Part shown: positions 1 through 9,093 of the stretch, piece by piece
Position numbering within the stretch: position 1 is the stretch's first letter
Layout: the number at the start of each line of letters is the position of its first letter
From: a virus
Taxonomy: Duplodnaviria > Heunggongvirae > Uroviricota > Caudoviricetes
DNA: 9,093 nt
Direction: 5' to 3' (one strand)
Virus record (IMG/VR): IMGVR_UViG_2537561928_000018
Made by a program: the position numbers and the translations under genes
Notes under the pieces: generated by a model
Databases searched by the model: none
What the model saw: only the letters and a program-made list of their open reading frames with translations
Told to the model about the DNA's origin: nothing

Positions 1-540
1 AAAAATACTTAACAGAACTACCAAGAAGAGAGGGAACGATAAGACCGGAGGTAGTGACCTTGTTAGACAGGCTGTTTCAAAGCTCTTAAGAATCTGTTAA
101 GTAAGGTCATGTGAACAATCTTACCATTTTGTCAATGCTTTTGTCTTTGACCTAAATCAATAAAATGTATCGTTTGATGTGCTTTTAAACAAAGTAGCTA
201 AAAAATCTTTTTAGAGGGGCGCTTCGCTTGGGGTCACTATGTTCTTTCTCTCCCGTTAAGAGGGGAGTTACAGGGCATTTCAAAGCCCTGATAAGGTAAG
301 CCCGATGATAACAGAAACAGAGGGCAAAACCACTTATCAACACTGTGAACGAATAACGTAAAGGGCTGGTTAAGAAAGTCGGTTTAGGGATTGGTAGATG
401 ATTCGGATGAAGCATCCTCATAACAATACCAATTAGAAGGGAGCTTCCCTCTCTGGGGTTATCGCTCTTCTCCCGCTTAGTGGATAGCTAAGAAGGCTTG
501 AAGTCATCTGTGAAGGTGCTGAACAGCTACTATATTGGGT

Positions 541-583
541 GATTGCAACTCGTTGAAAAATAAGCATTTTTAGAAATCACTGT
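541..583 (+). repeat. 43-bp imperfect direct repeat, copy 1 (partner at 638-680)
   Basis: Seen in sequence: gattgcaactcgttgaaaaataagcatttttagaaatcactgt versus aattacaacttattgaaaaataagaacttttagaaattactgt; about 36 of 43 positions identical by eye, same orientation, 97-bp period. Confidence 0.6.
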
Positions 584-637
584 TAAGGTTACAGAGTCAA
601 CTGTGAAGAGACTTGTCAGTTCTCTATATATATGGCT

Positions 638-680
638 AATTACAACTTATTGAAAAATAAGAACTTTTAGAAATTACTGT
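638..680 (+). repeat. 43-bp imperfect direct repeat, copy 2
   Basis: See copy 1; shared core ttgaaaaataag...ttttagaaat.actgt. Confidence 0.6.
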
Positions 681-761
681 CAGAGAGGTGAATACTTGAT
701 AGACACAGCTTTCTGGTTCTGTCAAGCTATTTTTTAATAGATAGCACAAAATGCTAAAGAT

Positions 762-790
762 ACCCCTGTACGAGATGGTATAGGGGTTTT
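762..790. terminator. Hairpin with T-run, possible intrinsic terminator
   Basis: acccctgtac / gtataggggt forms a roughly 10-bp stem (one G-T pair) with 6-nt loop gagatg, followed by tttt on the + strand; sits about 10 bp 3' of the stop of the minus-strand ORF 800-1012, so it could act on either strand. Not folded computationally. Confidence 0.35.
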
Positions 791-799
791 GAAGGGGGT

Positions 800-1012
800 T
801 TAACGGGGGTCCGTGTGGTCATTATCCTTAAGGTCAAGCGTCCATGTACGACCGAACAGTTTAAAGACAACAAGCACTCTGACGAGGACGTAGCGGAGTA
901 ACAGACCTGCAATCAGCCCGATACCTCCACCAGCCCATACATCAGGTGACCCCAGTTCAGGAGGGAGATTTACCATTAAATTTCCTGTGTGCAATGCAAT
1001 ACCATGTGACAT
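800..1012 (-). CDS. Hypothetical small protein with one hydrophobic segment (70 aa; alternative start at internal Met, codon 977-979, gives 58 aa)
   Basis: ORF track; hydrophobic stretch AGGGIGLIAGLLLRYVLVRVLVV; no clear SD before ATG at 1012, weak AGGA before the internal ATG; region looks GC-richer than its surroundings. Could be spurious. Confidence 0.3.
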   Translation of the reverse strand: MSHGIALHTGNLMVNLPPELGSPDVWAGGGIGLIAGLLLRYVLVRVLVVFKLFGRTWTLDLKDNDHTDPR

Positions 1013-1140
1013 ACATAGTTGATTCGGTTAGTTGGGCTTGTACCAACCCCTATCGAATAAACCTCATAGCCACGCCTTTATATTTTACTCTCCCCATAGA
1101 ACCATTATACCACAGATGTTAATAAAATGTTAAAAAATAC

Positions 1141-1179
1141 TTGACATTAGTCTTTGAAAATGCTAGTATTGTATATATA
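1141..1179 (+). promoter_or_regulatory. Sigma70-type promoter P1: TTGACA, 17-bp spacer, extended -10 TGcTAGTAT, then TGTATATATA box
   Basis: Seen in sequence: ttgaca at 1141-1146, tgc-tagtat at 1161-1169, tgtatatata at 1170-1179; located about 50 bp upstream of the 1221 start codon. Confidence 0.55.
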
Positions 1180-1220
1180 AGTTAACAGAATAATAACATC
1201 TTATGAGGGTCGGAACATGA

Positions 1221-1778
1221 ATGAGAGACGCAGAATTTAGAGCGATGCTTCAGGCATCGAGACAACGTAACAAGCACAACTCCTACGCTTACACAAACAA
1301 CCCAACCAGCTACGAACTACCCAAGCTCACCAAGAAAGAACGCAAAGGCATTGACGAAGTAATTCGTAGCATTACGCCACGAGACAGATTTATGCCAACC
1401 AGAAAGAGCACCCAGAACACTATTAAAAATTATCTGGCTAACTTTGATTCTTACGAGCAACTACCAAGTAAGCTTGATGATATTTTCATTGGATTCTGTA
1501 GAAGTGAAGGCCACCCGAAATACAACAAAAAACTATTTTATCTTCTAAAGAATCTTGACGAAATTAACGCAGCCAGCGTGACAAATTATCTTCAAAGACA
1601 AGCAACCAGACTTAGCCATGAATTACCAAGCGATAAATATTGCGCTTTGCTTGCTGTAATGTGTGCAAAGCTAATTGGTATTGTTGAACATCATATTGCC
1701 GTTGGGAATATTGAGCCAATGGAAAACGAGCAACCAGATTTCGAGTTTGACCCGTATTTAGTTACAGAGGAATTTTAA
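1221..1778 (+). CDS. Hypothetical protein, 185 aa, acidic C-terminal tail (first gene of coupled operon)
   Basis: ORF track; ATG start; GAGGG about 11 nt upstream; stop TAA directly abuts the next start codon (TAAATG). No family recognised. Confidence 0.7.
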   Translation: MRDAEFRAMLQASRQRNKHNSYAYTNNPTSYELPKLTKKERKGIDEVIRSITPRDRFMPTRKSTQNTIKNYLANFDSYEQLPSKLDDIFIGFCRSEGHPKYNKKLFYLLKNLDEINAASVTNYLQRQATRLSHELPSDKYCALLAVMCAKLIGIVEHHIAVGNIEPMENEQPDFEFDPYLVTEEF

Positions 1779-2057
1779 ATGAATAAACACACATTAACCC
1801 GTATTTCAGAGGAAGCTTTTAACGAGCTTACCAGAATTAAACGAGCTACTAACTTGCCTCATCAAACTGTAATGCAGCTTGCAATTGCTAAAGAGGTCAC
1901 TGAGTCGGATTTACTTAAATATCCAGTCTCTAAAGGTCGTAAGCACATCCGAATTACTCAGGACGCTTTAGATACTTTGAAGGCACTTAACGGCTTTAAG
2001 ATTGATATTGCCCGTCTATTGAGTCTTAAGATTCACAAGTTAGCGATGGAGGTTTAA
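1779..2057 (+). CDS. Putative DNA-binding protein with two ribbon-helix-helix-like repeats, 92 aa
   Basis: ORF track; SD GAGGAA 6 nt upstream; pattern HTLTRI-SEEAFNELTRIKRAT-NLP-HQTVMQLAIAK and a second HIRIT-QDALDTLKALNG-IDIARLLSLKIHK resemble strand-helix-helix units. Fold assignment is inference only. Confidence 0.6.
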   Translation: MNKHTLTRISEEAFNELTRIKRATNLPHQTVMQLAIAKEVTESDLLKYPVSKGRKHIRITQDALDTLKALNGFKIDIARLLSLKIHKLAMEV

Positions 2058-2272
2058 TGCTATGCGTTACCTTTGAATACCACACGGATAAAATGATTCG
2101 CCACATCTCCGACCTCCTGATTAAGGGAAACGGATTCGGTGACATCCATAACTCAAAAGATATTTTCATTAAAGCCATTGGCCCAAATGAAGTACTGAAA
2201 ACAGCAGTTAAACCGGAATGGTTTGAGCGTCACAAGATTGAATTAGGTTATTGGGGTGAGGAGGTTTTATGA
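2057..2272 (+). CDS. Hypothetical protein, 71 aa
   Basis: ORF track; start overlaps upstream stop (TAATG); GGAGG 4 nt upstream; stop overlaps next start (ATGA). Confidence 0.6.
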   Translation: MLCVTFEYHTDKMIRHISDLLIKGNGFGDIHNSKDIFIKAIGPNEVLKTAVKPEWFERHKIELGYWGEEVL

Positions 2273-2556
2273 AACCTTGGCATGAAGATGTTAGACGATA
2301 TTTTACAGAACACCTTATCTATGATGAATCCAGTGATTCCCTGTGCTGGTCTGATGGAGAGTCAGTCACGATAAATACCGACGACTACGGCAACAAAACA
2401 TTTAATATAGGCCGATATACTTTCTACGTGAAATATGTTGTCTGGTTCCTTTATCATGGCTATCAATCCAACAAGCAAATTATCCATCGAAATGGTAACA
2501 GAGCCGATACCAGACCAAAAAATCTTATGCAAGTCCGAGACTTTAAGAGAAATTAG
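2269..2556 (+). CDS. Minimal HNH-family endonuclease, 95 aa
   Basis: ORF track; SD GGTGAGGAGG 4 nt upstream; C-terminal motif IIHRNGNRADTRPKNLMQV matches the H-x-x-G-N...N-L signature of phage-type HNH endonucleases, preceded by YVKYVVWFLYHG; recalled family pattern, not searched. Confidence 0.7.
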   Translation: MKPWHEDVRRYFTEHLIYDESSDSLCWSDGESVTINTDDYGNKTFNIGRYTFYVKYVVWFLYHGYQSNKQIIHRNGNRADTRPKNLMQVRDFKRN

Positions 2557-2711
2557 AAAAATAGCTTCTCAGGCGCTCTCAATCGCATTCTAACGCAAAA
2601 AACTATCTTATTTTAGGGTGGGTAATACCACTGTACAGGCTACCCCTGAAAAAGACTGTTTAGCTCGTTACAGAGCGATTGAGGAGGTCTGGTAAAAAGG
2701 AGATTTTAAAA

Positions 2712-3035
2712 ATGAACAATTACCCATTACAGATTTTCGTTGATAACGACACCGCTATGATGATTCAGGCTTTCACTGATGTAGGTGTTAGCATTGACTT
2801 TGACAGGCTGTTAAGGCTAATGGCTGATAACTCAGAAGTAATTGAAGACTTTATTCAGTCGGTGGAGTTTAACGAGCCTCGAATGATGCTACCAATTATA
2901 GACAGCAACATGAAAAGATTGGTTATCGAGCAAACGAACAAATACAGTATTAGCCCTGAAAGATATCTCAAGGCAGCTATAGCAATTTTGTACGCTGACA
3001 ATATTTTGGTGACGGATTCGAAGGTGGTGCATTAA
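2712..3035 (+). CDS. Hypothetical acidic protein, 107 aa from the ATG (ORF track begins at TTG 2679)
   Basis: ATG at 2712 has SD AAGGAG 9 nt upstream, preferred over the TTG at 2679 which overlaps a GAGGAGG; D/E-rich; no family recognised. Confidence 0.65.
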   Translation: MNNYPLQIFVDNDTAMMIQAFTDVGVSIDFDRLLRLMADNSEVIEDFIQSVEFNEPRMMLPIIDSNMKRLVIEQTNKYSISPERYLKAAIAILYADNILVTDSKVVH

Positions 3036-3100
3036 TGGAATTGGTGATTATCTGTTTTGTATTGATTGGTATGATTGCAGGTGCATCTATTAAAGTATAA
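3035..3100 (+). CDS. 21-aa hydrophobic micropeptide MELVIICFVLIGMIAGASIKV (not in ORF track)
   Basis: Seen in sequence: ATG overlaps upstream TAA (TAATG); strong SD AAGGTGG 5 nt upstream inside the end of the preceding gene; one predicted transmembrane-length hydrophobic stretch; stop TAA at 3098-3100. Confidence 0.4.
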   Translation: MELVIICFVLIGMIAGASIKV

Positions 3101-3125
3101 ATGTTACCAATCTGTTAAAAAGCTG

Positions 3126-3164
3126 TTGACAAATAACCTTGAGCATGACATAATTGTATATATA
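3126..3164 (+). promoter_or_regulatory. Sigma70-type promoter P2: TTGACA, 17-bp spacer, extended -10 TGaCATAAT, then TGTATATATA box
   Basis: Seen in sequence: ttgaca 3126-3131, tga-cataat 3146-3154, tgtatatata 3155-3164; same architecture as P1. Confidence 0.55.
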
Positions 3165-3243
3165 GGGAGAGCAATTCTCCTTGAATTAAAATATTAATCG
3201 TCTCTACATCGATGATAACTATATTCTGAGTTGGAAAGGTGCA

Positions 3244-3420
3244 ATGCTTTTCGTCATGGCCTTTCAGGTTAGTCTGAGAGGCTATCTCAAAAAGTGCTTA
3301 ATCATTCATTCATTGAACCCTTTACAGCTTTGCCCTAATCATGAGTTAGGGCGTTTCTTTAAGAGTTTTCAAACAGAACTTTTAAAGAAAGTTTTTCCTG
3401 AAACTTCGTTAACGTTATAA
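3244..3420 (+). CDS. Candidate small ORF, 58 aa, basic (alternatively an untranslated leader or small RNA)
   Basis: ATG at 3244 with stop TAA at 3418-3420; lies between P2 and a hairpin at 3432-3473; SD weak (AAAGGTG only 2 nt from the ATG); just below the ORF-track length cutoff. Coding status uncertain. Confidence 0.25.
   Translation: MLFVMAFQVSLRGYLKKCLIIHSLNPLQLCPNHELGRFFKSFQTELLKKVFPETSLTL
3332..3360 (+). terminator. Terminator-like hairpin gccctaa / ttagggc with tail gtttcttt
   Basis: 7-bp perfect stem, 7-nt loop, T-rich tail; located inside the candidate 58-aa ORF or leader, so it may be an attenuator rather than a gene-end terminator. Confidence 0.35.
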
Positions 3421-3431
3421 AGCAAACCTCC

Positions 3432-3480
3432 AAAGCCCTTCACAGATGAGGATGAACCTATGTTTAGGGCTTTTCTTTAT
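3432..3480 (+). terminator. Terminator-like hairpin aaagccct / agggcttt with tail tctttat
   Basis: 8-bp stem but a large 26-nt loop, followed by a T-rich run; begins 12 nt after the stop of the candidate small ORF. Confidence 0.3.
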
Positions 3481-3573
3481 AGAGCATCTTTAATAAATCG
3501 TTAAGTCATCTTCTAAGTGTATTGGCGTTGAAGGTGCTCTATTAAGAAATAATCACACTTAGAGGAAATTATA

Positions 3574-4284
3574 ATGACAAATGATATTTACATTAATGGC
3601 AGAAAGGTTGATAGCTTCGGTGACTGGTCGCCACAGACTGAACATCCAGCTATCACTATTCAGCGTAAAGAACACGATGAAAGAATTAAGCTTGAGCAAT
3701 CGTTAAAGATGTCACCAAAGGTAATTTCCTTTGTGTCTCCTGAGCCTCAAGAAATGCCAGATATCTGCAAAAGTGAAGCACTATTTAATCTTGAGCGTGA
3801 ATATTACCCACAGTTAAAAGCACAGCGTATTAAACTTGATGACGCTTACAGCAAAGTTACCCTGATGCAATCAGCTATTGAGCCGTCAGAATTTGAGATT
3901 CAGGATGAATTGTCACAGAAACCATTTGTCTATTACCAATACGAAGATAATGATGGTTTTGGTACTTTTCCTGAGAATATCCCAGACGTGATTAATAATC
4001 TTCCTGACGGATATCGAATTGTGAAGATGGTTAAAGCTTCAAGGGGTGCTGGTCAATTTATTTATATGACTAATAAGAGCGATGAAGAACTCTGTGAACT
4101 TGCTAGACAGAACATCTTGGCATCACGTAACAAGCAACTTGAAAATGTTAAGTTGTATCTCTCAAGAGAGCTTCAGGCTATGAAAGAACTTGTTAGTGAA
4201 TATGAATCACAGAAGAAGATTGCTATGCAAGCCGATATTGAGCAGTTAATGAAGATTTCTCAGAAATATGCAAAGGCTATTTGA
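3574..4284 (+). CDS. Hypothetical protein, 236 aa
   Basis: ORF track; SD AGAGGAAA 5 nt upstream of ATG; predicted helical, charged C-terminal third; no family recognised. Confidence 0.75.
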   Translation: MTNDIYINGRKVDSFGDWSPQTEHPAITIQRKEHDERIKLEQSLKMSPKVISFVSPEPQEMPDICKSEALFNLEREYYPQLKAQRIKLDDAYSKVTLMQSAIEPSEFEIQDELSQKPFVYYQYEDNDGFGTFPENIPDVINNLPDGYRIVKMVKASRGAGQFIYMTNKSDEELCELARQNILASRNKQLENVKLYLSRELQAMKELVSEYESQKKIAMQADIEQLMKISQKYAKAI

Positions 4285-4292
4285 GGTGATTA

Positions 4293-4601
4293 ATGAATGA
4301 TTTAACAGAACGCGATAAAAGAATTAAAGGGGTGATGGAACCTTTTGAAGATAGGTTCAATGAAATTAAAACGACTCTTGGTGATATTCAGGAGGTCACT
4401 GAATATCTTATTGGTCGTATGGACGAAAAGCCTCTTGCCGAACTAAAGTGTGATGGTCGGGATGATTTAACGCGACTTCTTATCGAACTCAAGGATAAGA
4501 TAAATAAGCTTGATACTGTGTATTATCAAACTGGTCTTTCACTACGTTATGAAATTCAAAAGAATGAACGCGGTGTCGAGTGTATACACTACTTAGATTA
4601 A
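4293..4601 (+). CDS. Hypothetical protein, 102 aa, N-terminus MNDLTER
   Basis: ORF track; SD GAGG 6 nt upstream; N-terminus paralogous to the next gene. Confidence 0.7.
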   Translation: MNDLTERDKRIKGVMEPFEDRFNEIKTTLGDIQEVTEYLIGRMDEKPLAELKCDGRDDLTRLLIELKDKINKLDTVYYQTGLSLRYEIQKNERGVECIHYLD

Positions 4602-4626
4602 AATCGAATTAAAAAGGAGGTGGTGA

Positions 4627-4830
4627 ATGATTGATTTAACAGAACGCTATGAACTCATCAAGGCAATTAGTGAACGACTGAAAGAACAACCCAACAAACC
4701 AAAACGAATCAAATCATCCACCTCTAAGCAAAATAACAGAATCAGAAGAATCGCTAAATGGTGTCTTGATAAATTACCAAGTGATTGTCAGATTGTTGGT
4801 GAAGATGGCAATTATTATCTGGTTGGGTAA
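4627..4830 (+). CDS. Hypothetical basic protein, 67 aa, N-terminus MIDLTER
   Basis: ORF track; strong SD AAGGAGG 6 nt upstream; K/R-rich middle region. Confidence 0.65.
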   Translation: MIDLTERYELIKAISERLKEQPNKPKRIKSSTSKQNNRIRRIAKWCLDKLPSDCQIVGEDGNYYLVG

Positions 4831-4850
4831 AAAGATTGGTTGGGTAAAAA
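4821..4850 (+). repeat. Tandem repeat of ggttgggtaaaaa (2 copies, 17-bp period) overlapping the stop codon of the 67-aa gene
   Basis: Seen in sequence: 4821-4833 and 4838-4850 are identical 13-mers. Confidence 0.55.
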
Positions 4851-4855
4851 TCTAC

Positions 4856-4897
4856 GGGAGAGATTATCGAGTGACATCGGTAGTTTCTCCCTTTTTT
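4856..4897 (+). terminator. Hairpin gggaga / tctccc followed by tttttt, putative intrinsic terminator
   Basis: 6-8 bp stem, roughly 20-nt loop with internal complementarity, then a T6 run; lies between the 67-aa gene and the tape-measure-like gene. Confidence 0.45.
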
Positions 4898-4904
4898 GTA
4901 TGTG

Positions 4905-4970
4905 TGCTACGTGAAATCTGTAAAGCTAATACCCACACTGAAAAATAGAATTTACGTACAACACGCTTAA
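4905..4970 (+). promoter_or_regulatory. Conserved 66-bp intergenic element, copy A (upstream of the tape-measure-like gene)
   Basis: Shares the ordered blocks tgctacgtgaaatct ... atacccac ... aaaaat ... tttacgta ... cacgcttaa with copy B at 7049-7114; first 15 nt identical. Confidence 0.5.
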
Positions 4971-4988
4971 AGAGGTGAAATATGAACA

Positions 4989-7037
4989 ATGAGCAAATTT
5001 ACAGTTGATAGTTTTATCGTTGAATTAGGCTTCAGTGAAAACGTTGTTAAAGGCTTGCAAAGAGTTGAAAAGGCAGCTTTGCAGTCAGCACAAAGAATTG
5101 AAAAGAACCTAAATAAAGGTTTCAGGATTAATACAAAACAGCTTGATAGTAATTTGACAAGTTCTTTAGGGCAACTTGAAAGGAAGTTTAATAAGGCTTT
5201 TGACAAGATTGAACAGAGAGCAAGAAGCACAAAAGCTTTCCGTTTCACAAGTCAGGTTAATGACGCTATTAATCCTCCAAAACAACCAAGACAGCCACGA
5301 ATTAGCGGAAACAGAGCAATCACAGCAGCTTACTCAGCGAATATGAGCAAGTTAAAGGGCTTTGACCCTGTTTTGCAGAAATACATCAAATCTCAGTTTT
5401 ACGGGCTATCTGCTAAAGCTGGTCAGATGGATAATTCAAAATTCAATGAGAAGCTGGCTCAGTTAAATGCTTCAGTCAGAGAAGCAATTGCTAAAGCTAA
5501 AGGTCATACATCCACCAGCATTAACGGTGACAGAGCAGCTAATAGTCTTGATAGTTTGAGTTCAGCAGCAGTTAAAACAGCAGGTGCATTTATCAGCTTT
5601 CAGGCTGTACTATCCGCTTATCAGAAGATTATGGAAGTTGGCCTTCAACGTGCATCATCGGAAAGAAGTATTGATTTCGTATTCGGTGACCAAAGTACAC
5701 AGGTCAAAAAGTTCATTCAAGATTTAACTCAAATTACTGGTATGGACACAACCGAAACACAAGCACAGTTTGCTTCATTTGGTGCATCTGCAAAAAATAC
5801 GATGGGTCTTGAAGGCTCAGAGGAATTATTTAAAAACTTAACTGGATATGCCCGTTTAATGGGTCGTTCAGATGAGCAGATTCAAAGAGCATTAACCGCA
5901 GTATCGCAGATGGCTTCTAAGGGTCAGGTGATGGCTGAAGAGCTTAAGGGGCAACTATCTGAAGCTTTACCGGGTGCTACTCAGGCATTTGCAAAGGCTT
6001 TAGGTCTGACTGAAAAACAGCTTTTCGATAAGATGAAAAATGGTGATGTTAAAGCCTCTGATGCACTCCCTAAGTTTGCTAAAGAACTTGGTTCACAGAT
6101 TAATTCCAGAGGTGGCTGGAAAGCTATTCAGGACTCTACGCAGACGATGTTAGGGAACTTAAAGAATACTTGGAACAACTCACTAACGGATATCTTCAGA
6201 GGTTCTGAAAATGGTCTTCAAGATTTCACAAGAAGCTTAACAACGCTTTTAAATAGTCTTGGTGGGAGTGGTAAAACATTAGGTGAAAGTCTTGGTAATC
6301 TCATGACTTCTATGTCACACGGTGTCGATAACCTGACTGATATTAGTTACAGGGTAAGGGCGTTCTTTGACGAGGTGACATTGGCTTATCGTGGTTTAAC
6401 CGATGAACAAAAGAAAGTTGTTGATGCTTTAGGTTCTGGCTTGATTAATAGTTTAAAAGTCTTGGCTGGTGTTATTGCTGTAAATAAAGTTGTTGGTGTA
6501 ACCAGAAGTATTTACGGGCTTATGACTGCTATCACAAGATTAGGTCAGGTCGCTGATACTACAGCGGATAACGTGAATAGAAAGAACGGGAAACCATCAA
6601 GGTTTAATCTTGGGAATATGCTATTAGCTGGTAGTGCTATCTATGCAGGTTATGAAAGATTAGCCTCTACACCTGAACGAATGGAAGCACAAGCTAAATT
6701 ACCAGAGCTGGCTAAAGAGTCTGGACTTAAGCCAGTATTTACTATGGACGATGTGAAAGGTTGGTTTAATAGTGCAGCTATGAATCTTGCTAACTTCCAG
6801 CATCCAGAATTAATCACCATGAGACAAGATGCGGCATTAACGAATACGGATATCCAAAGCCTGAGAGATGAAATTAGTGCTTTGAGCAAACGTATTCAGG
6901 AGCCTGTGAAAGTTTCACTTGGTGGTGAAGTTGCCATTAAACCAGATGAAACCAGCTTTATGACCTTTAGCAGTAATATCTACGACCAATACGCAGAAGC
7001 TACGCTATTAAGTTCATCATTCCCAGAAGATGATTGA
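4989..7037 (+). CDS. Tape-measure-like protein, 682 aa
   Basis: ORF track; residues about 300-368 (ALTAVSQMASKGQVMAEELKGQLSEALPGATQAFAKALGLTEKQLFDKMKNGDVKASDALPKFAKELG) match my recollection of the conserved core of phage tail tape-measure proteins (SKG.V.AEEL..QL.E.LPGA...A.A.G pattern); A/Q/K/L/S-rich helical composition. The only SD (AGAGGTG) is about 11 nt upstream of the ATG. Confidence 0.6.
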   Translation: MSKFTVDSFIVELGFSENVVKGLQRVEKAALQSAQRIEKNLNKGFRINTKQLDSNLTSSLGQLERKFNKAFDKIEQRARSTKAFRFTSQVNDAINPPKQPRQPRISGNRAITAAYSANMSKLKGFDPVLQKYIKSQFYGLSAKAGQMDNSKFNEKLAQLNASVREAIAKAKGHTSTSINGDRAANSLDSLSSAAVKTAGAFISFQAVLSAYQKIMEVGLQRASSERSIDFVFGDQSTQVKKFIQDLTQITGMDTTETQAQFASFGASAKNTMGLEGSEELFKNLTGYARLMGRSDEQIQRALTAVSQMASKGQVMAEELKGQLSEALPGATQAFAKALGLTEKQLFDKMKNGDVKASDALPKFAKELGSQINSRGGWKAIQDSTQTMLGNLKNTWNNSLTDIFRGSENGLQDFTRSLTTLLNSLGGSGKTLGESLGNLMTSMSHGVDNLTDISYRVRAFFDEVTLAYRGLTDEQKKVVDALGSGLINSLKVLAGVIAVNKVVGVTRSIYGLMTAITRLGQVADTTADNVNRKNGKPSRFNLGNMLLAGSAIYAGYERLASTPERMEAQAKLPELAKESGLKPVFTMDDVKGWFNSAAMNLANFQHPELITMRQDAALTNTDIQSLRDEISALSKRIQEPVKVSLGGEVAIKPDETSFMTFSSNIYDQYAEATLLSSSFPEDD

Positions 7038-7048
7038 TAATAGTCGAA

Positions 7049-7114
7049 TGCTACGTGAAATCTTCTGAACAGATATACCCACCAAAAATTATTTTTTACG
7101 TAGCTCACGCTTAA
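7049..7114 (+). promoter_or_regulatory. Conserved 66-bp intergenic element, copy B (upstream of the 258-aa gene)
   Basis: See copy A; begins 12 nt after the stop of the tape-measure-like gene and ends about 80 nt before the ATG at 7195. Confidence 0.5.
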
Positions 7115-7194
7115 CAGAGAAAACACTTATATATCAAAGGCTTGGTTAAAAATGATTAAAATACACTAAGTCTTTGAAATCAAAGGAGAATTTA

Positions 7195-7968
7195 ATGATT
7201 TACTCTAACCAAATCAAATATAGTGGCAAAGATGGCATCTATTTCCACTTAAGAGATAATGTAGATGCCTTCTTAACCTTATCAGCAACTGAAAACATGG
7301 AATTTGACAGCCCTATGCAGGTAACTACACAGAACATGCAATCAGGGCAAACCGTCACAGATAATGTGCAAAGAGCACCCAGAACAATCACTATTAGTGG
7401 TGTCGTTGTAGTTGGCTATGAAGGAAGTTTATTATTAACTCGTCAGGGTCAATTAGTAGAAAACTTCATTGACACTCTCGAAAGCTGGCGTGACCAGAAG
7501 CAAATTATTTCGGTCATCTGTAAAGACGGTATCAAGATTGATGACTCCATTATCACGAGTTTTAAAGCCTCTAAAGATGTTGGAATTTCAAACGGCTTAA
7601 GAATCCAATTAACTTTTCAGGAAATTAACTTTAAAGCTATTGTGGGTCAGACTGATATCTCGGCTGCGACCGGAAGGACTTCTACCACAAGTGATGGTGG
7701 TGCTACCAGTAAAAAGAATACTGGTAATACTACAACAAGTCTAGGTAATGGTATGTTGCTGTGTCAGGAGCTATATAATCGCTCTACGAGTGAACTTTCT
7801 AATGAGCAACTTCAAGCCCGTATCAATTGTGGTAGAAGTGTCAAAGTTGAGAATGGAAAAAGCACCTTCTCAGATGCCGCTAATGAGCAAGCTTCAAAGG
7901 CGCTTAATAATGCTGGTACAGGTAATGTTTTGAAGAGGCTTTCTGTGAATCCTAACAAGCGCTACTGA
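7195..7968 (+). CDS. Hypothetical protein, 258 aa from the ATG (ORF track begins at TTG 7174); possibly tail-associated by position only
   Basis: ATG at 7195 has SD AAGGAG 6 nt upstream, and the TTG at 7174 would overlap it; contains an S/T/G-rich linker ([28 protein letters not shown]) between two regions; no family recognised. Confidence 0.7.
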
Positions 7969-7982
7969 CGATAGAATCTCAA

Positions 7983-8678
7983 CTATATGATAACCTCATC
8001 AACATCTATTAAACCCCTCTCAGTGACTTCAGAAAGCGACTGTATAGCCTCTGTAACGTCCTCTGAGGGGTTTTCTGTTATTGGTAAGGTGATTGCTCTA
8101 CCGTTGTGAAAAGTTACTTTACAGCGACGTTTAGCAGTATTTAAAACGACCTCTTTAACAGCACTTTTGATTATCAGTTGTGCTTCAATCCTTCCCGCCT
8201 TTGTAGTCAAGTCACAATCAGACAAAGAGCCTGTATCGATAGACTTAAGCCGCTGTGTCTCCTTCTCGATATCCGCATCAACCTGTGATAGCTCACCTTT
8301 TAACTGTTTTAGTTTGCTGGTAATAGCGGACAAGTCTTCAATTTCAAGTGATAGCTGTACCAGCTTTTCAATATTGTTTGAGATGTGTTCACGGTGTAGC
8401 TTCAGTGTGTCTATGGTATTCGTCGTATCGCTATCAAATCGGTCAAGACGAGATAGCAGGGTAAGTAATGTACCATCGGTTTGCTTACGTGAAAGTCCTT
8501 TAGCACTACAACGGTTTTCATTACGAAGGGGACAACGATAAATCCCGTTTCTTGTATTGCTAAAGCCTGTGATAATCAGAGCATGACCACATTCAGAACA
8601 ACGGATAACACCTTTAAAGAGATTCACACTCAATGGTTTATCTGAAGCAGGTTTTCGACCGTAACGAGAATGTGATAG
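7983..8678 (-). pseudogene. Large serine recombinase, 3' fragment (zinc-ribbon plus coiled-coil region); 5' catalytic part displaced by the IS3 insertion
   Basis: Minus-strand frame is open from the IS3 boundary with no credible start (track start at 8633 is a TTG); Cys pattern RCSECGH...YRCPLRNENRC followed by a long heptad-like coiled coil is typical of the C-terminal region of large serine integrases; about 230 aa is too short for a complete enzyme. Confidence 0.7.
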
Positions 8679-8743
8679 TGATCTTACCCAGCAATAGTGG
8701 ACACGCGGCTAAGTGAGTAAACTCTCAGTCAGAGGTGACTCAC

Positions 8744-9043
8744 ATGACAAAAACAGTATCAACCAGTAAAAAACCCCGTAAACAGCATTCGCCTGAATTT
8801 CGCAGTGAAGCCCTGAAGCTTGCTGAACGCATCGGTGTTACTGCCGCAGCCCGTGAACTCAGCCTGTATGAATCACAACTCTACAACTGGCGCAGTAAAC
8901 AGCAAAATCAGCAGACGTCTTCTGAACGTGAACTGGAGATGTCTACCGAGATTGCACGTCTCAAACGCCAGCTGGCAGAACGGGATGAAGAGCTGGCTAT
9001 CCTCCAAAAGGCCGCGACATACTTCGCGAAGCGCCTGAAATGA
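8744..9043 (+). CDS. insE: IS3 OrfA (transposase N-terminal / regulatory protein), 99 aa from the ATG
   Basis: Translation MTKTVSTSKKPRKQHSPEFRSEALKLAERIGVTAAARELSLYESQLYNWRSKQQ... is the IS3 OrfA sequence as I recall it; the track start at 8735 is an upstream GTG. Confidence 0.85.
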   Translation: MTKTVSTSKKPRKQHSPEFRSEALKLAERIGVTAAARELSLYESQLYNWRSKQQNQQTSSERELEMSTEIARLKRQLAERDEELAILQKAATYFAKRLK

Positions 9044-9093
9044 AGTATGTCTTTATTGAAAAACATCAGGCTGAGTTCAGCATCAAAGCAATG
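9040..9093 (+). CDS. insF: IS3 OrfB (transposase catalytic part), 5' end only
   Basis: ATG overlaps the insE stop (ATGA); translation MKYVFIEKHQAEFSIKAM matches the IS3 OrfB N-terminus as I recall it; truncated by the window edge. Confidence 0.8.
   Translation, partial: MKYVFIEKHQAEFSIKAM

Follow-up and report, generated by a model that had tools for sequence, protein, structure and literature searches.

The omega repressor of the inc18 plasmids (such as pSM19035) is a ribbon-helix-helix (RHH) protein whose binding sites are arrays of short heptad repeats, located in several promoter regions. TraY, from the F plasmid, recognizes its own promoter as well as oriT, a cis-acting site. The N25 promoter of phage T5 and the A1 promoter of phage T7 are strong sigma-70 early promoters of lytic phages. 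Here we describe two promoters that share features with all of these systems. These promoters, P1 (1,141-1,179) and P2 (3,126-3,164), lie in a 9,093-nucleotide sequence from IMG/VR (record IMGVR_UViG_2537561928_000018, Caudoviricetes), which we will call the window. A preliminary description of the window noted that both promoters end in the same 10-mer, or box, and proposed that this box is a common operator. As explained below, P1 and P2 are, by alignment, copies of a single ~63-bp sigma-70 promoter cassette, and the box is most probably core-promoter sequence: an AT-rich discriminator and start site. Pairs of TGTTA repeats beside the promoters are more probably the operator, and the best candidate for the protein that reads them is a predicted tandem RHH protein encoded by the second gene of the P1 operon. 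The cassettes belong to an island in the chromosome of Escherichia coli that has sequence ties to the Felix O1-type phages.

Both promoters have the layout that was originally claimed for them: TTGACA, a 17-bp spacer with TGn at its end, a -10 hexamer, and then the identical 10-mer TGTATATATA (Table 1). This is what is expected of extended -10 promoters for sigma-70 (hexamers near the consensus, a spacer of 16-18 bp, and TG). When the window was scanned with the sigma-70 consensus, P2 matched at 11 of 12 positions and P1 at 10 of 12, both with a 17-bp spacer and TG. They rank first and third overall and are the top two matches on the + strand. (The window has 19 promoter-like matches in total, versus 23.9 expected, so there is no excess over chance.) The -35 hexamer is unchanged across 36 distinct sequences from the family. 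By these features, P1 and P2 are strong sigma-70-type promoters and are ordinary in kind. We also considered the box as an alternative -10 hexamer, but we rejected this by eye, as TATATA lacks the T at -7 and the TG would be out of register.

"Near-identical" overstates the similarity of P1 and P2 across the 39 nucleotides from the -35 through the box, where 28 of 39 positions are identical (6/6 in the -35, 9/17 in the spacer, 3/6 in the -10, and 10/10 in the box). On the other hand, the similarity extends further upstream than had been noticed. If the alignment begins at the first TGTTA (at 1117 or 3102) and runs through the box, 43 of its 63 positions are identical, without gaps. For comparison, 200,000 random pairs of segments had 16.5 +/- 3.6 identities, with a maximum of 41, so the similarity of P1 and P2 reflects homology or a shared constraint and not chance. 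The common geometry is TGTTAN-N5-TGTTAA-N7-TTGACA-N17-hexamer-box. We found no significant match to either cassette in phage records. The exact 10-mer is present at P1 and P2 and nowhere else in the window, and there is a copy with one mismatch (TCTATATATA) at 623-632. Three matches with at most one mismatch is not significant by itself, as 12 of 200 shuffled sequences reached this number.

To see which parts of the cassettes are conserved, we took about 35 related loci (numbered below with an L) and compared their distinct promoter sequences, 21 for P1 and about 30 for P2. We also scanned sequence collections with the degenerate pattern TGTTAAAAARYWSTTGACA; among the matches listed, most were due to chance, but at least about 26 loci of the family were recovered. 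At P2, the box is the most variable segment. Its mean pairwise difference is 0.34 per site, versus 0.15 for the -10 hexamer, 0.16 for the spacer, and 0 for the -35 hexamer, and 8 of its 10 columns vary. At P1, the corresponding values are 0.16 for the box, 0.17 for the -10, 0.085 for the spacer, and 0 for the -35. The alleles of the P2 box fall into four classes (TGTATATAT, TTTAATTAT, TTTAAGTAT, and GGTAATAGG), with differences at as many as 6 of the 10 positions. The individual alleles are TGTATATATA (7 distinct sequences), TGTATATATG (4), TTTAATTATA (7), TTTAATTATG (5), TTTAAGTATG (3), and GGTAATAGGG (4). The P1 box alleles are TGTATATATA (9 distinct sequences), TGTATATATG (4), TGTCTATATA (3), TGTATGTATT (2), TGTGCATATA (2), and TGTATATAGG (1). 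The length of the TA repeat at P1 differs by up to 3 bp among the relatives.

If the box were an operator, we would expect it to be conserved among the relatives that retain the regulator and to be the same at all of the promoters that are regulated together. Instead, the P2 box falls into four classes, and the alleles are independent of the type of RHH protein. Among the 20 elements for which both P1 and P2 were captured, just 5 have the same 10-mer at both promoters, and the P1 and P2 alleles pair freely, without covariation. Also, the box is missing from the promoter of the RHH gene in one group of relatives (type C, discussed below). The only pattern common to all of the alleles is TKTNNNTATR: they are rich in A and T and have a T-A step at the canonical distance for the start. 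Because the box is variable, assorts freely, and retains only this pattern, it is better explained as the discriminator and start region than as a sequence-specific operator. These observations do not support the proposal of a common operator. The preliminary description had offered a shared requirement for the initial transcribed sequence as another explanation, and this is close to the view that we favor. That the 10-mers of P1 and P2 are identical in this lineage is most probably due to common descent.

The TGTTA repeats behave differently from the box. Upstream of each promoter are two units that begin 11 bp apart, in the same register to the -35, and another pair lies in inverted orientation downstream of the P1 start. 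On the - strand, the inverted pair reads TGTTAT-tattc-TGTTAA, and it is retained as GTTAACAG-N5-TAACA in all relatives of P1. In the window, the pattern TGTTA-N6-TGTTA is found at just three places (1117 and 3102 on the + strand and 1198 on the - strand), always at P1 or P2. Simulations with a first-order Markov model gave an expectation of 0.04 occurrences, and none of 500 simulations reached 3. In the relatives, most of the changes within the upstream pair of P1 are in the N5 spacers and not in the hexamers, and the P2 pair is constant across all three types of RHH protein. For an RHH repressor with repeat-unit operators (of the Arc, CopG, or omega type), short subsites on one face of the DNA, with a period of about 10-11 bp, are expected at or in the regulator's own promoter. 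Here, units with an 11-bp period flank P1, the predicted promoter of the operon that contains the RHH gene.

The putative regulator, orf92, has 92 amino acids and two predicted RHH motifs within a single chain. The AlphaFold2 model (from 22 homologues) shows beta-alpha-alpha twice, with strands at residues 4-10 and 54-60 and a pLDDT of 89.9. With Foldseek, the top matches were chains of the F-plasmid relaxosome, followed by DndE and AvtR; all of these are tandem-RHH proteins, and the probabilities are up to 0.99. The best match is to 9f0x_E, which we take to be TraY (probability 0.99, TM-score 0.5-0.6, E = 0.04), with just 7-9% sequence identity. Searches with sequence profiles gave little: orf92 has no match in Pfam above the threshold, its matches to DndE are weak and sub-threshold, and among solved structures ArgR (E = 0.09) and a carbonic anhydrase (E = 0.47) were the only hits, both below the threshold of significance. 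The model and the structural matches support, with moderate confidence, the earlier guess that 1779-2057 encodes an RHH-like protein, now in tandem form.

The RHH protein exists as three diverged types, and both of the predicted strands are conserved among them (HT.TR and.IRI.). The type-C relatives (L045, L059, L085, and L130) lack orf185, and the RHH gene is the first early gene. Their RHH promoter (gaTGTTGACAatATGTTAAataaATGTTAAGAT) contains three TGTTxA units with an 11-bp period, which lie over the -35, the spacer, and the -10 (TGTTGAcaataTGTTAAataaaTGTTAAGAT), and it has no TATATA box. Autorepressed promoters are typically laid out in this way, and this is the most telling of the observations that tie the repeat, rather than the box, to the RHH protein. 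An asymmetric protein with both RHH motifs in one chain would also suit a unit that is not palindromic and that occurs in direct or inverted orientation.

Altogether, we propose, with a probability of about 0.6, that P1 and P2 are twin cassettes whose box belongs to the core promoter, and that they are co-regulated via the TGTTA repeats, which are most likely bound by the tandem RHH protein. Each cassette would begin with TGTTAN-N5-TGTTAA and a short A tract, continue with TTGACA, 17 bp of spacer (TGn at its end), and the -10, and finish with an AT-rich discriminator in which the start is a pyrimidine-purine step. The 10-mer would aid melting and fix the start, and would not be an operator for a protein, while the repeats, at a spacing of one helical turn, would provide the co-regulation. 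At P1, one pair would lie at about -59 to -43 and the inverted pair at about +6 to +22; P2 would have the upstream pair only. Because these pairs flank P1, and because the RHH gene is in the P1 operon, the protein would feed back on its own operon. The upstream pair of P1 doubles as the -35 of a leftward promoter, so binding would block this promoter as well. What the analysis shows directly is the architecture of the sequence, the way in which it is conserved, and the predicted fold of the protein; the identity of the binding protein, the sign of its effect (repression or activation), and the start sites are inferred. As the preliminary description suggested, P1 and P2 very probably share their regulation, but the box is probably not what couples them.

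Several observations weigh against this proposal. Just one of the five AlphaFold2 models of orf92 is confident (the other four are poor, at about 45), and the Foldseek E-values are weak, at 0.04 and above. Because conservation is high throughout the upstream region, the repeats do not give a sharp footprint, and the A tract that follows the second unit is also compatible with a proximal UP element. The distance from the -10 to the downstream pair (or to the next conserved block) varies from 9 to 12 bp among the relatives, which argues against strict phasing or looping. A lone site at -59 to -43, as at P2, is unusual for a repressor. The P1 box is fairly well conserved (TGT..ATAT), so it might have a sequence-specific role at P1. 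Finally, phage JH2 has arrays of the same repeat and yet has no homologue of the RHH protein, so a protein from the helper phage could be the real ligand.

These arrays were found by comparing three phages of the Ounavirinae: the Felixounaviruses JH2 and JLBYU28 and the Mooglevirus Moogle. In JH2 (87.7 kb), 13 of the 14 TGTTA-N6-TGTTA pairs lie within one stretch of 750 bp (84.7-85.4 kb), which sits in a noncoding region of ~1.7 kb where two blocks of genes converge. JLBYU28 and Moogle retain the arrays: within 2-3 kb they have 11-12 pairs and about 30 TGTTAR hexamers. This region is also the region that is homologous to the left arm of the island. A number of phage records have one of their ends less than 1 kb away, which hints at a genome end; the region may be a packaging or replication site that was copied by the island. 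Either a phage protein also reads the repeats, or the island's protein can read the phage array. We also considered whether the box is a promoter motif of the helper phage, but JH2 has no exact copy and only three copies with one mismatch, which is below chance.

How probable are the other explanations? If a repressor such as the RHH protein bound the box at the start site, this would couple P1 and P2 and would put the operator over +1, which is the classic position for a repressor. The exact 10-mer is at the identical position in both promoters, and TGTATATAT is found at P1 in 13 of 21 distinct sequences. We nevertheless think that this is very unlikely, given the divergence of the P2 box while the -35 and the TGTTA pairs are retained, the box alleles that covary neither with each other nor with the type of RHH protein (whose DNA-reading strands are conserved), the type-C promoter that has no box, and the varying length of the TA repeat at P1. 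It is also quite unlikely, in our view, that P1 and P2 have no dedicated regulator and are constitutive promoters of maximal strength, with TGTTAA-AAAA as an UP element for the alpha subunit of RNA polymerase. An UP element cannot explain the inverted pair, because this pair lies downstream of the P1 start. Nor does an UP element fit with the three units inside the core promoter of the type-C RHH gene, or with the long noncoding arrays of the phages, which have the same unit and period but no matching promoter geometry nearby. What this explanation does account for is the overall build of P1 and P2, as each has an A tract (about -44 to -38), a -35 that matches the consensus, a spacer of 17 bp, TGn, and a discriminator rich in A and T. 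Strong phage early promoters, of the T5 and T7 A1 type, are built in this way.

A protein from a helper phage might read the TGTTA repeats, alongside the RHH protein or instead of it, so that P1 and P2 would sense infection by a Felix O1-type phage. The concentration of the JH2 pairs in one noncoding stretch and the retention of the arrays in the other two phages would fit with this, as would the left arm of the island, which is 75-77% identical to part of the array region, and the island's homologues of the phage tape-measure and Dit-like genes. We identified no candidate for such a protein in the phage, however, JH2 has no RHH homologue, and the repeats in the type-C RHH gene's own promoter point to the protein from the island. 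We consider control by a phage protein to be unlikely. Control by the RHH protein remains the explanation that we prefer.

Table 1. Features of the P1/P2 region and of the island's left arm. Positions are in the window unless another sequence is named.
Feature	Position	Strand	Description and basis
Small ORF downstream of leftward promoter	800..1012	-	62-70 aa, hydrophobic membrane-like segment; hypothetical protein in L005, L008
Divergent leftward promoter	1104..1133	-	TTAACA 1133-1128, 18 nt, TGgTATAAT (-10 at 1109-1104); 11/12 matches, TG
P1 upstream repeat pair	1117..1133	+	TGTTAA-taaaa-TGTTAA, 11 bp start to start, ends 7 nt before -35; kept in 21 distinct P1 sequences
P1 core promoter	1141..1169	+	TTGACA 1141-1146, 17-nt spacer ending TGc, TAGTAT 1164-1169; direct reading, consensus scan
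P1 box	1170..1179	+	TGTATATATA; predicted start A1175 or A1177, by position relative to -10 hexamer
Inverted pair downstream of P1 start	1182..1198	-	TTAACA-gaata-ATAACA on + (TTAACA 1182-1187, ATAACA 1193-1198); inverted repeat I19
P1 operon	1221..3100	+	ORF list, RefSeq annotation of identical locus L001
orf185	1221-1778	+	P1 operon
orf92	1779..2057	+	Second gene of P1 operon; two predicted RHH motifs (AlphaFold2 model, Foldseek)
orf71	2057-2272	+	P1 operon
HNH endonuclease	2269-2556	+	P1 operon; HNH_3 match
orf107	2712-3035	+	P1 operon
21-aa hydrophobic peptide	3035-3100	+	P1 operon; overlaps orf107 stop codon, longer in relatives
P2 upstream repeat pair	3102..3118	+	TGTTAC-caatc-TGTTAA, P1-like register to -35; about 30 distinct P2 sequences
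P2 core promoter	3126..3154	+	TTGACA 3126-3131, 17-nt spacer ending TGa, CATAAT 3149-3154; direct reading, consensus scan
P2 box	3155..3164	+	TGTATATATA; predicted start A3160 or A3162
P2 transcript	3162..3360	+	Predicted structured RNA or leader, ~200 nt; fold z-score, compensatory changes, terminator scan
Second terminator-like hairpin	3432..3478	+	AAGCCCT...AGGGCTT then TTCTTT, between P2 and orf236 (3574); direct reading
Left-arm homology to Ounavirinae	14-82; L001 10877-10992; JH2 84.2-85.9 kb (L003 39200-40900)

The transcription units that P1 and P2 would drive are quite different. P1 precedes an operon of protein genes, and it is back to back with the strong leftward promoter, whose -35 is the reverse complement of the second TGTTAA unit of P1. 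The stretch ccattataccaca of the leftward promoter is retained in all relatives. P2, as far as its sequence indicates, would head a structured and terminated RNA of ~200 nt that precedes the tail-gene module. The 410 nucleotides downstream of P2 have no conserved reading frame, because there are frame-breaking indels among the relatives. The first 200 nucleotides of the RNA fold with z = -4.2. A hairpin at the 5' end (3163-3183) has compensatory changes and begins 1-4 nucleotides after the box in most alleles, a long central hairpin covaries (GCC/GGC to ACC/GGT), and an intrinsic terminator, with a stem at 3331-3353 followed by a run of T, also has compensatory changes. The RNA carries the invariant sequence GAAAGGTGCAATGCTTTTC. 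A sigma-70 promoter would be expected to start transcription 6-8 nucleotides beyond the -10 hexamer; the T-A step in all of the box alleles and the position of the 5' hairpin give indirect support to such a start. The scan for terminators missed the second hairpin, at 3432-3478, as its loop is too long for the scan. An inverted repeat (I4) precedes orf236, and the sigma-70 consensus scan found no further promoter-like site before this gene. Since the P2 stretch is structured, terminated, and frameless, it could be a small RNA, or else a terminated leader that gates the downstream genes. Scanning the whole window against Rfam (E up to 1) gave no match.

Two other features of the P2 RNA were seen. 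In L004, L006, L085, and L095, a 27-nt insertion with its own hairpin (GAGGATAGTCTTCTATCCGAAGTCTAT) lies exactly between the box and the 5' hairpin. Also, the invariant GTGCAATGC of the RNA (3239-3247) recurs on the same strand at 989-997, at the start of the leftward small ORF. We considered 9 nucleotides of pairing between the P2 RNA and the leftward mRNA near its start codon, but we dropped this idea because the duplex would not be unusually stable and some relatives carry mutations in the site.

Positions 1-8679 of the window are 100% identical to chromosomal DNA from many strains of E. coli, and there was no match of the window to plasmids. In L001, which has an uninterrupted copy (10086-21576), this DNA makes up most of an island of ~11.5 kb that splits yecE, a DUF72 gene, and that has a gene for a serine recombinase of 507 amino acids at its right end. 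In the window, the recombinase gene (7983-8679, - strand) is truncated by an IS3-family element from about 8680 (8680-9093), which is annotated as IS2 family in identical genomes. In other copies of the island, the tape-measure or Dit-like genes carry insertions of the IS21, IS5, or IS1 type, which suggests that many copies are decaying. We found related DNA, at several integration sites, in 485 of 5,426 complete E. coli genomes (about 9%), and the family of the RHH protein is also represented in Salmonella, Citrobacter, and E. albertii. None of Pfam, PHROGs, NCBIfam, or PADLOC gave a name to the small ORFs. Our search of the literature found no description of the island; the literature on yecE concerns Stx phages. 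We considered whether the island might be SpLE2 or Sp13 of O157 Sakai, but SpLE2 is CP4-44-like and Sp13 resembles P2, and the island seems to be missing from Sakai.

Both the tail genes and the noncoding DNA tie the island to the Felix O1-type phages. The island's Dit-like protein (257 amino acids) is 81% identical to the protein adjacent to the tape measure of JH2, and the DNA is 94% identical over 544 nucleotides. The island's tape measure, with 682 amino acids, is shorter than its counterpart in JH2 (747) and shares 30% identity with it. Two stretches of the noncoding left arm are about 77% identical to the noncoding region of JH2, and a stretch of ~115-125 nucleotides matches about 50 phages of the Ounavirinae at roughly 75% identity. 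As is expected for a satellite, the island is an integrated element with its own recombinase and a split target gene (in L001), its relatives are found at other sites, and its set of virion genes is incomplete: it has only the tape-measure and Dit-like tail genes, plus phage-like noncoding DNA. These similarities suggest that it is a satellite, or a satellite-like island, of the Felix O1-type phages.

The island contains other repeats. A 66-nt element with inverted arms, GCTACGTGAAAT ... ATTTCACGTAGC, followed by CACGCTTAA, is found in the window at 4905-4970 and 7049-7114 and in L001 at ~10480-10570 (- strand). One copy directly precedes the tape-measure gene, another lies upstream of the Dit-like gene, and the third is close to the island's left end; the element is retained in the relatives. 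Neither the tape-measure gene nor the Dit-like gene has a sigma-70-like promoter upstream. We considered the repeat upstream of the tail genes (D1) as a late-promoter motif of the helper, but it was not found in JH2. In the left part of the window, two direct repeats of 48 nucleotides (536-583 and 633-680) are 97 bp apart and 83% identical, and the one-mismatch copy of the box lies between them. Their internal inverted repeats, GTGATT...AATCAC and CTAATT...AATTAC, differ by an apparent compensatory change. A direct repeat of ~45 nucleotides, GGTAGATGATTCGGATGAAGCATCCTCATAACAA, is found at 380-424 of the window and at 10108-10155 of L001; one copy lies at the extreme left end of the island, beside the yecE junction, and the other 2.3 kb inside. 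The left arm of the island differs among the relatives, and the left 2.3 kb (an AP2/HNH gene and noncoding DNA that is phage-like) could be a module of its own or a tandem one.

P1 and P2 matter because they form the control region of a common E. coli island whose borrowed tail genes and noncoding DNA come from virulent phages of the Felix O1 type, which are used for typing Salmonella and are candidates for biocontrol. The likely switch bases are the TGTTA pairs and not the TATATA box, which tells the experimenter what to mutate. The shared repeat is also a concrete and testable link between the island and its presumed helper. We speculate that the island represents an undescribed family of satellites, or of satellite-like defence islands, of these phages, that its hub cassettes share the repeat of the array in the helper's noncoding (and possibly terminal) region, and that one protein, whether the island's RHH protein or a phage protein, reads both genomes. 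This combination is possible but tentative. If it is correct, then expression of the satellite would be coupled to the helper's replication or packaging site, or the satellite would attack that site.

What makes the case interesting is not the regulatory mechanism, which is of a known kind, but the uncharacterised island and the repeat that it has in common with the Felix O1-type phages. Among satellites, PLE from Vibrio cholerae, which exploits the phage ICP1, is similar in being a chromosomal island with a large serine recombinase, mostly unknown ORFs, a nuclease gene, and sequence ties to a virulent myovirus. Unlike with PLE, the dependence on a helper is putative here, and no similarity between the proteins was detectable by name or domain. 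The island also has tape-measure and Dit-like tail genes, which the described satellites usually lack.

As to the promoters, P1 and P2 resemble T5 N25 and T7 A1 in the consensus -35 and the spacer of 17 bp, and also in having an extended -10, an A tract upstream, and a start region rich in A and T. They differ in that they lie in an integrated island and are flanked by repeat units, their box was not found in JH2, and the cassettes have no phage matches. The model of orf92 has beta-alpha-alpha twice, as in TraY (if 9f0x_E is indeed TraY), but the low identity, the weak E-value, and the absence of a relaxase or oriT context at the island set it apart. The omega system is similar in its use of short asymmetric units, direct or inverted, at several promoters of one element, including the regulator's own operon, and in a reader with the RHH fold (predicted, in our case), so that one protein would couple several transcription units. 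Here, however, the unit is 6 bp with an 11-bp period, versus contiguous heptads of 7 bp in the omega system, and orf92, as the predicted reader, would have two RHH motifs per chain and has no sequence relationship to omega.

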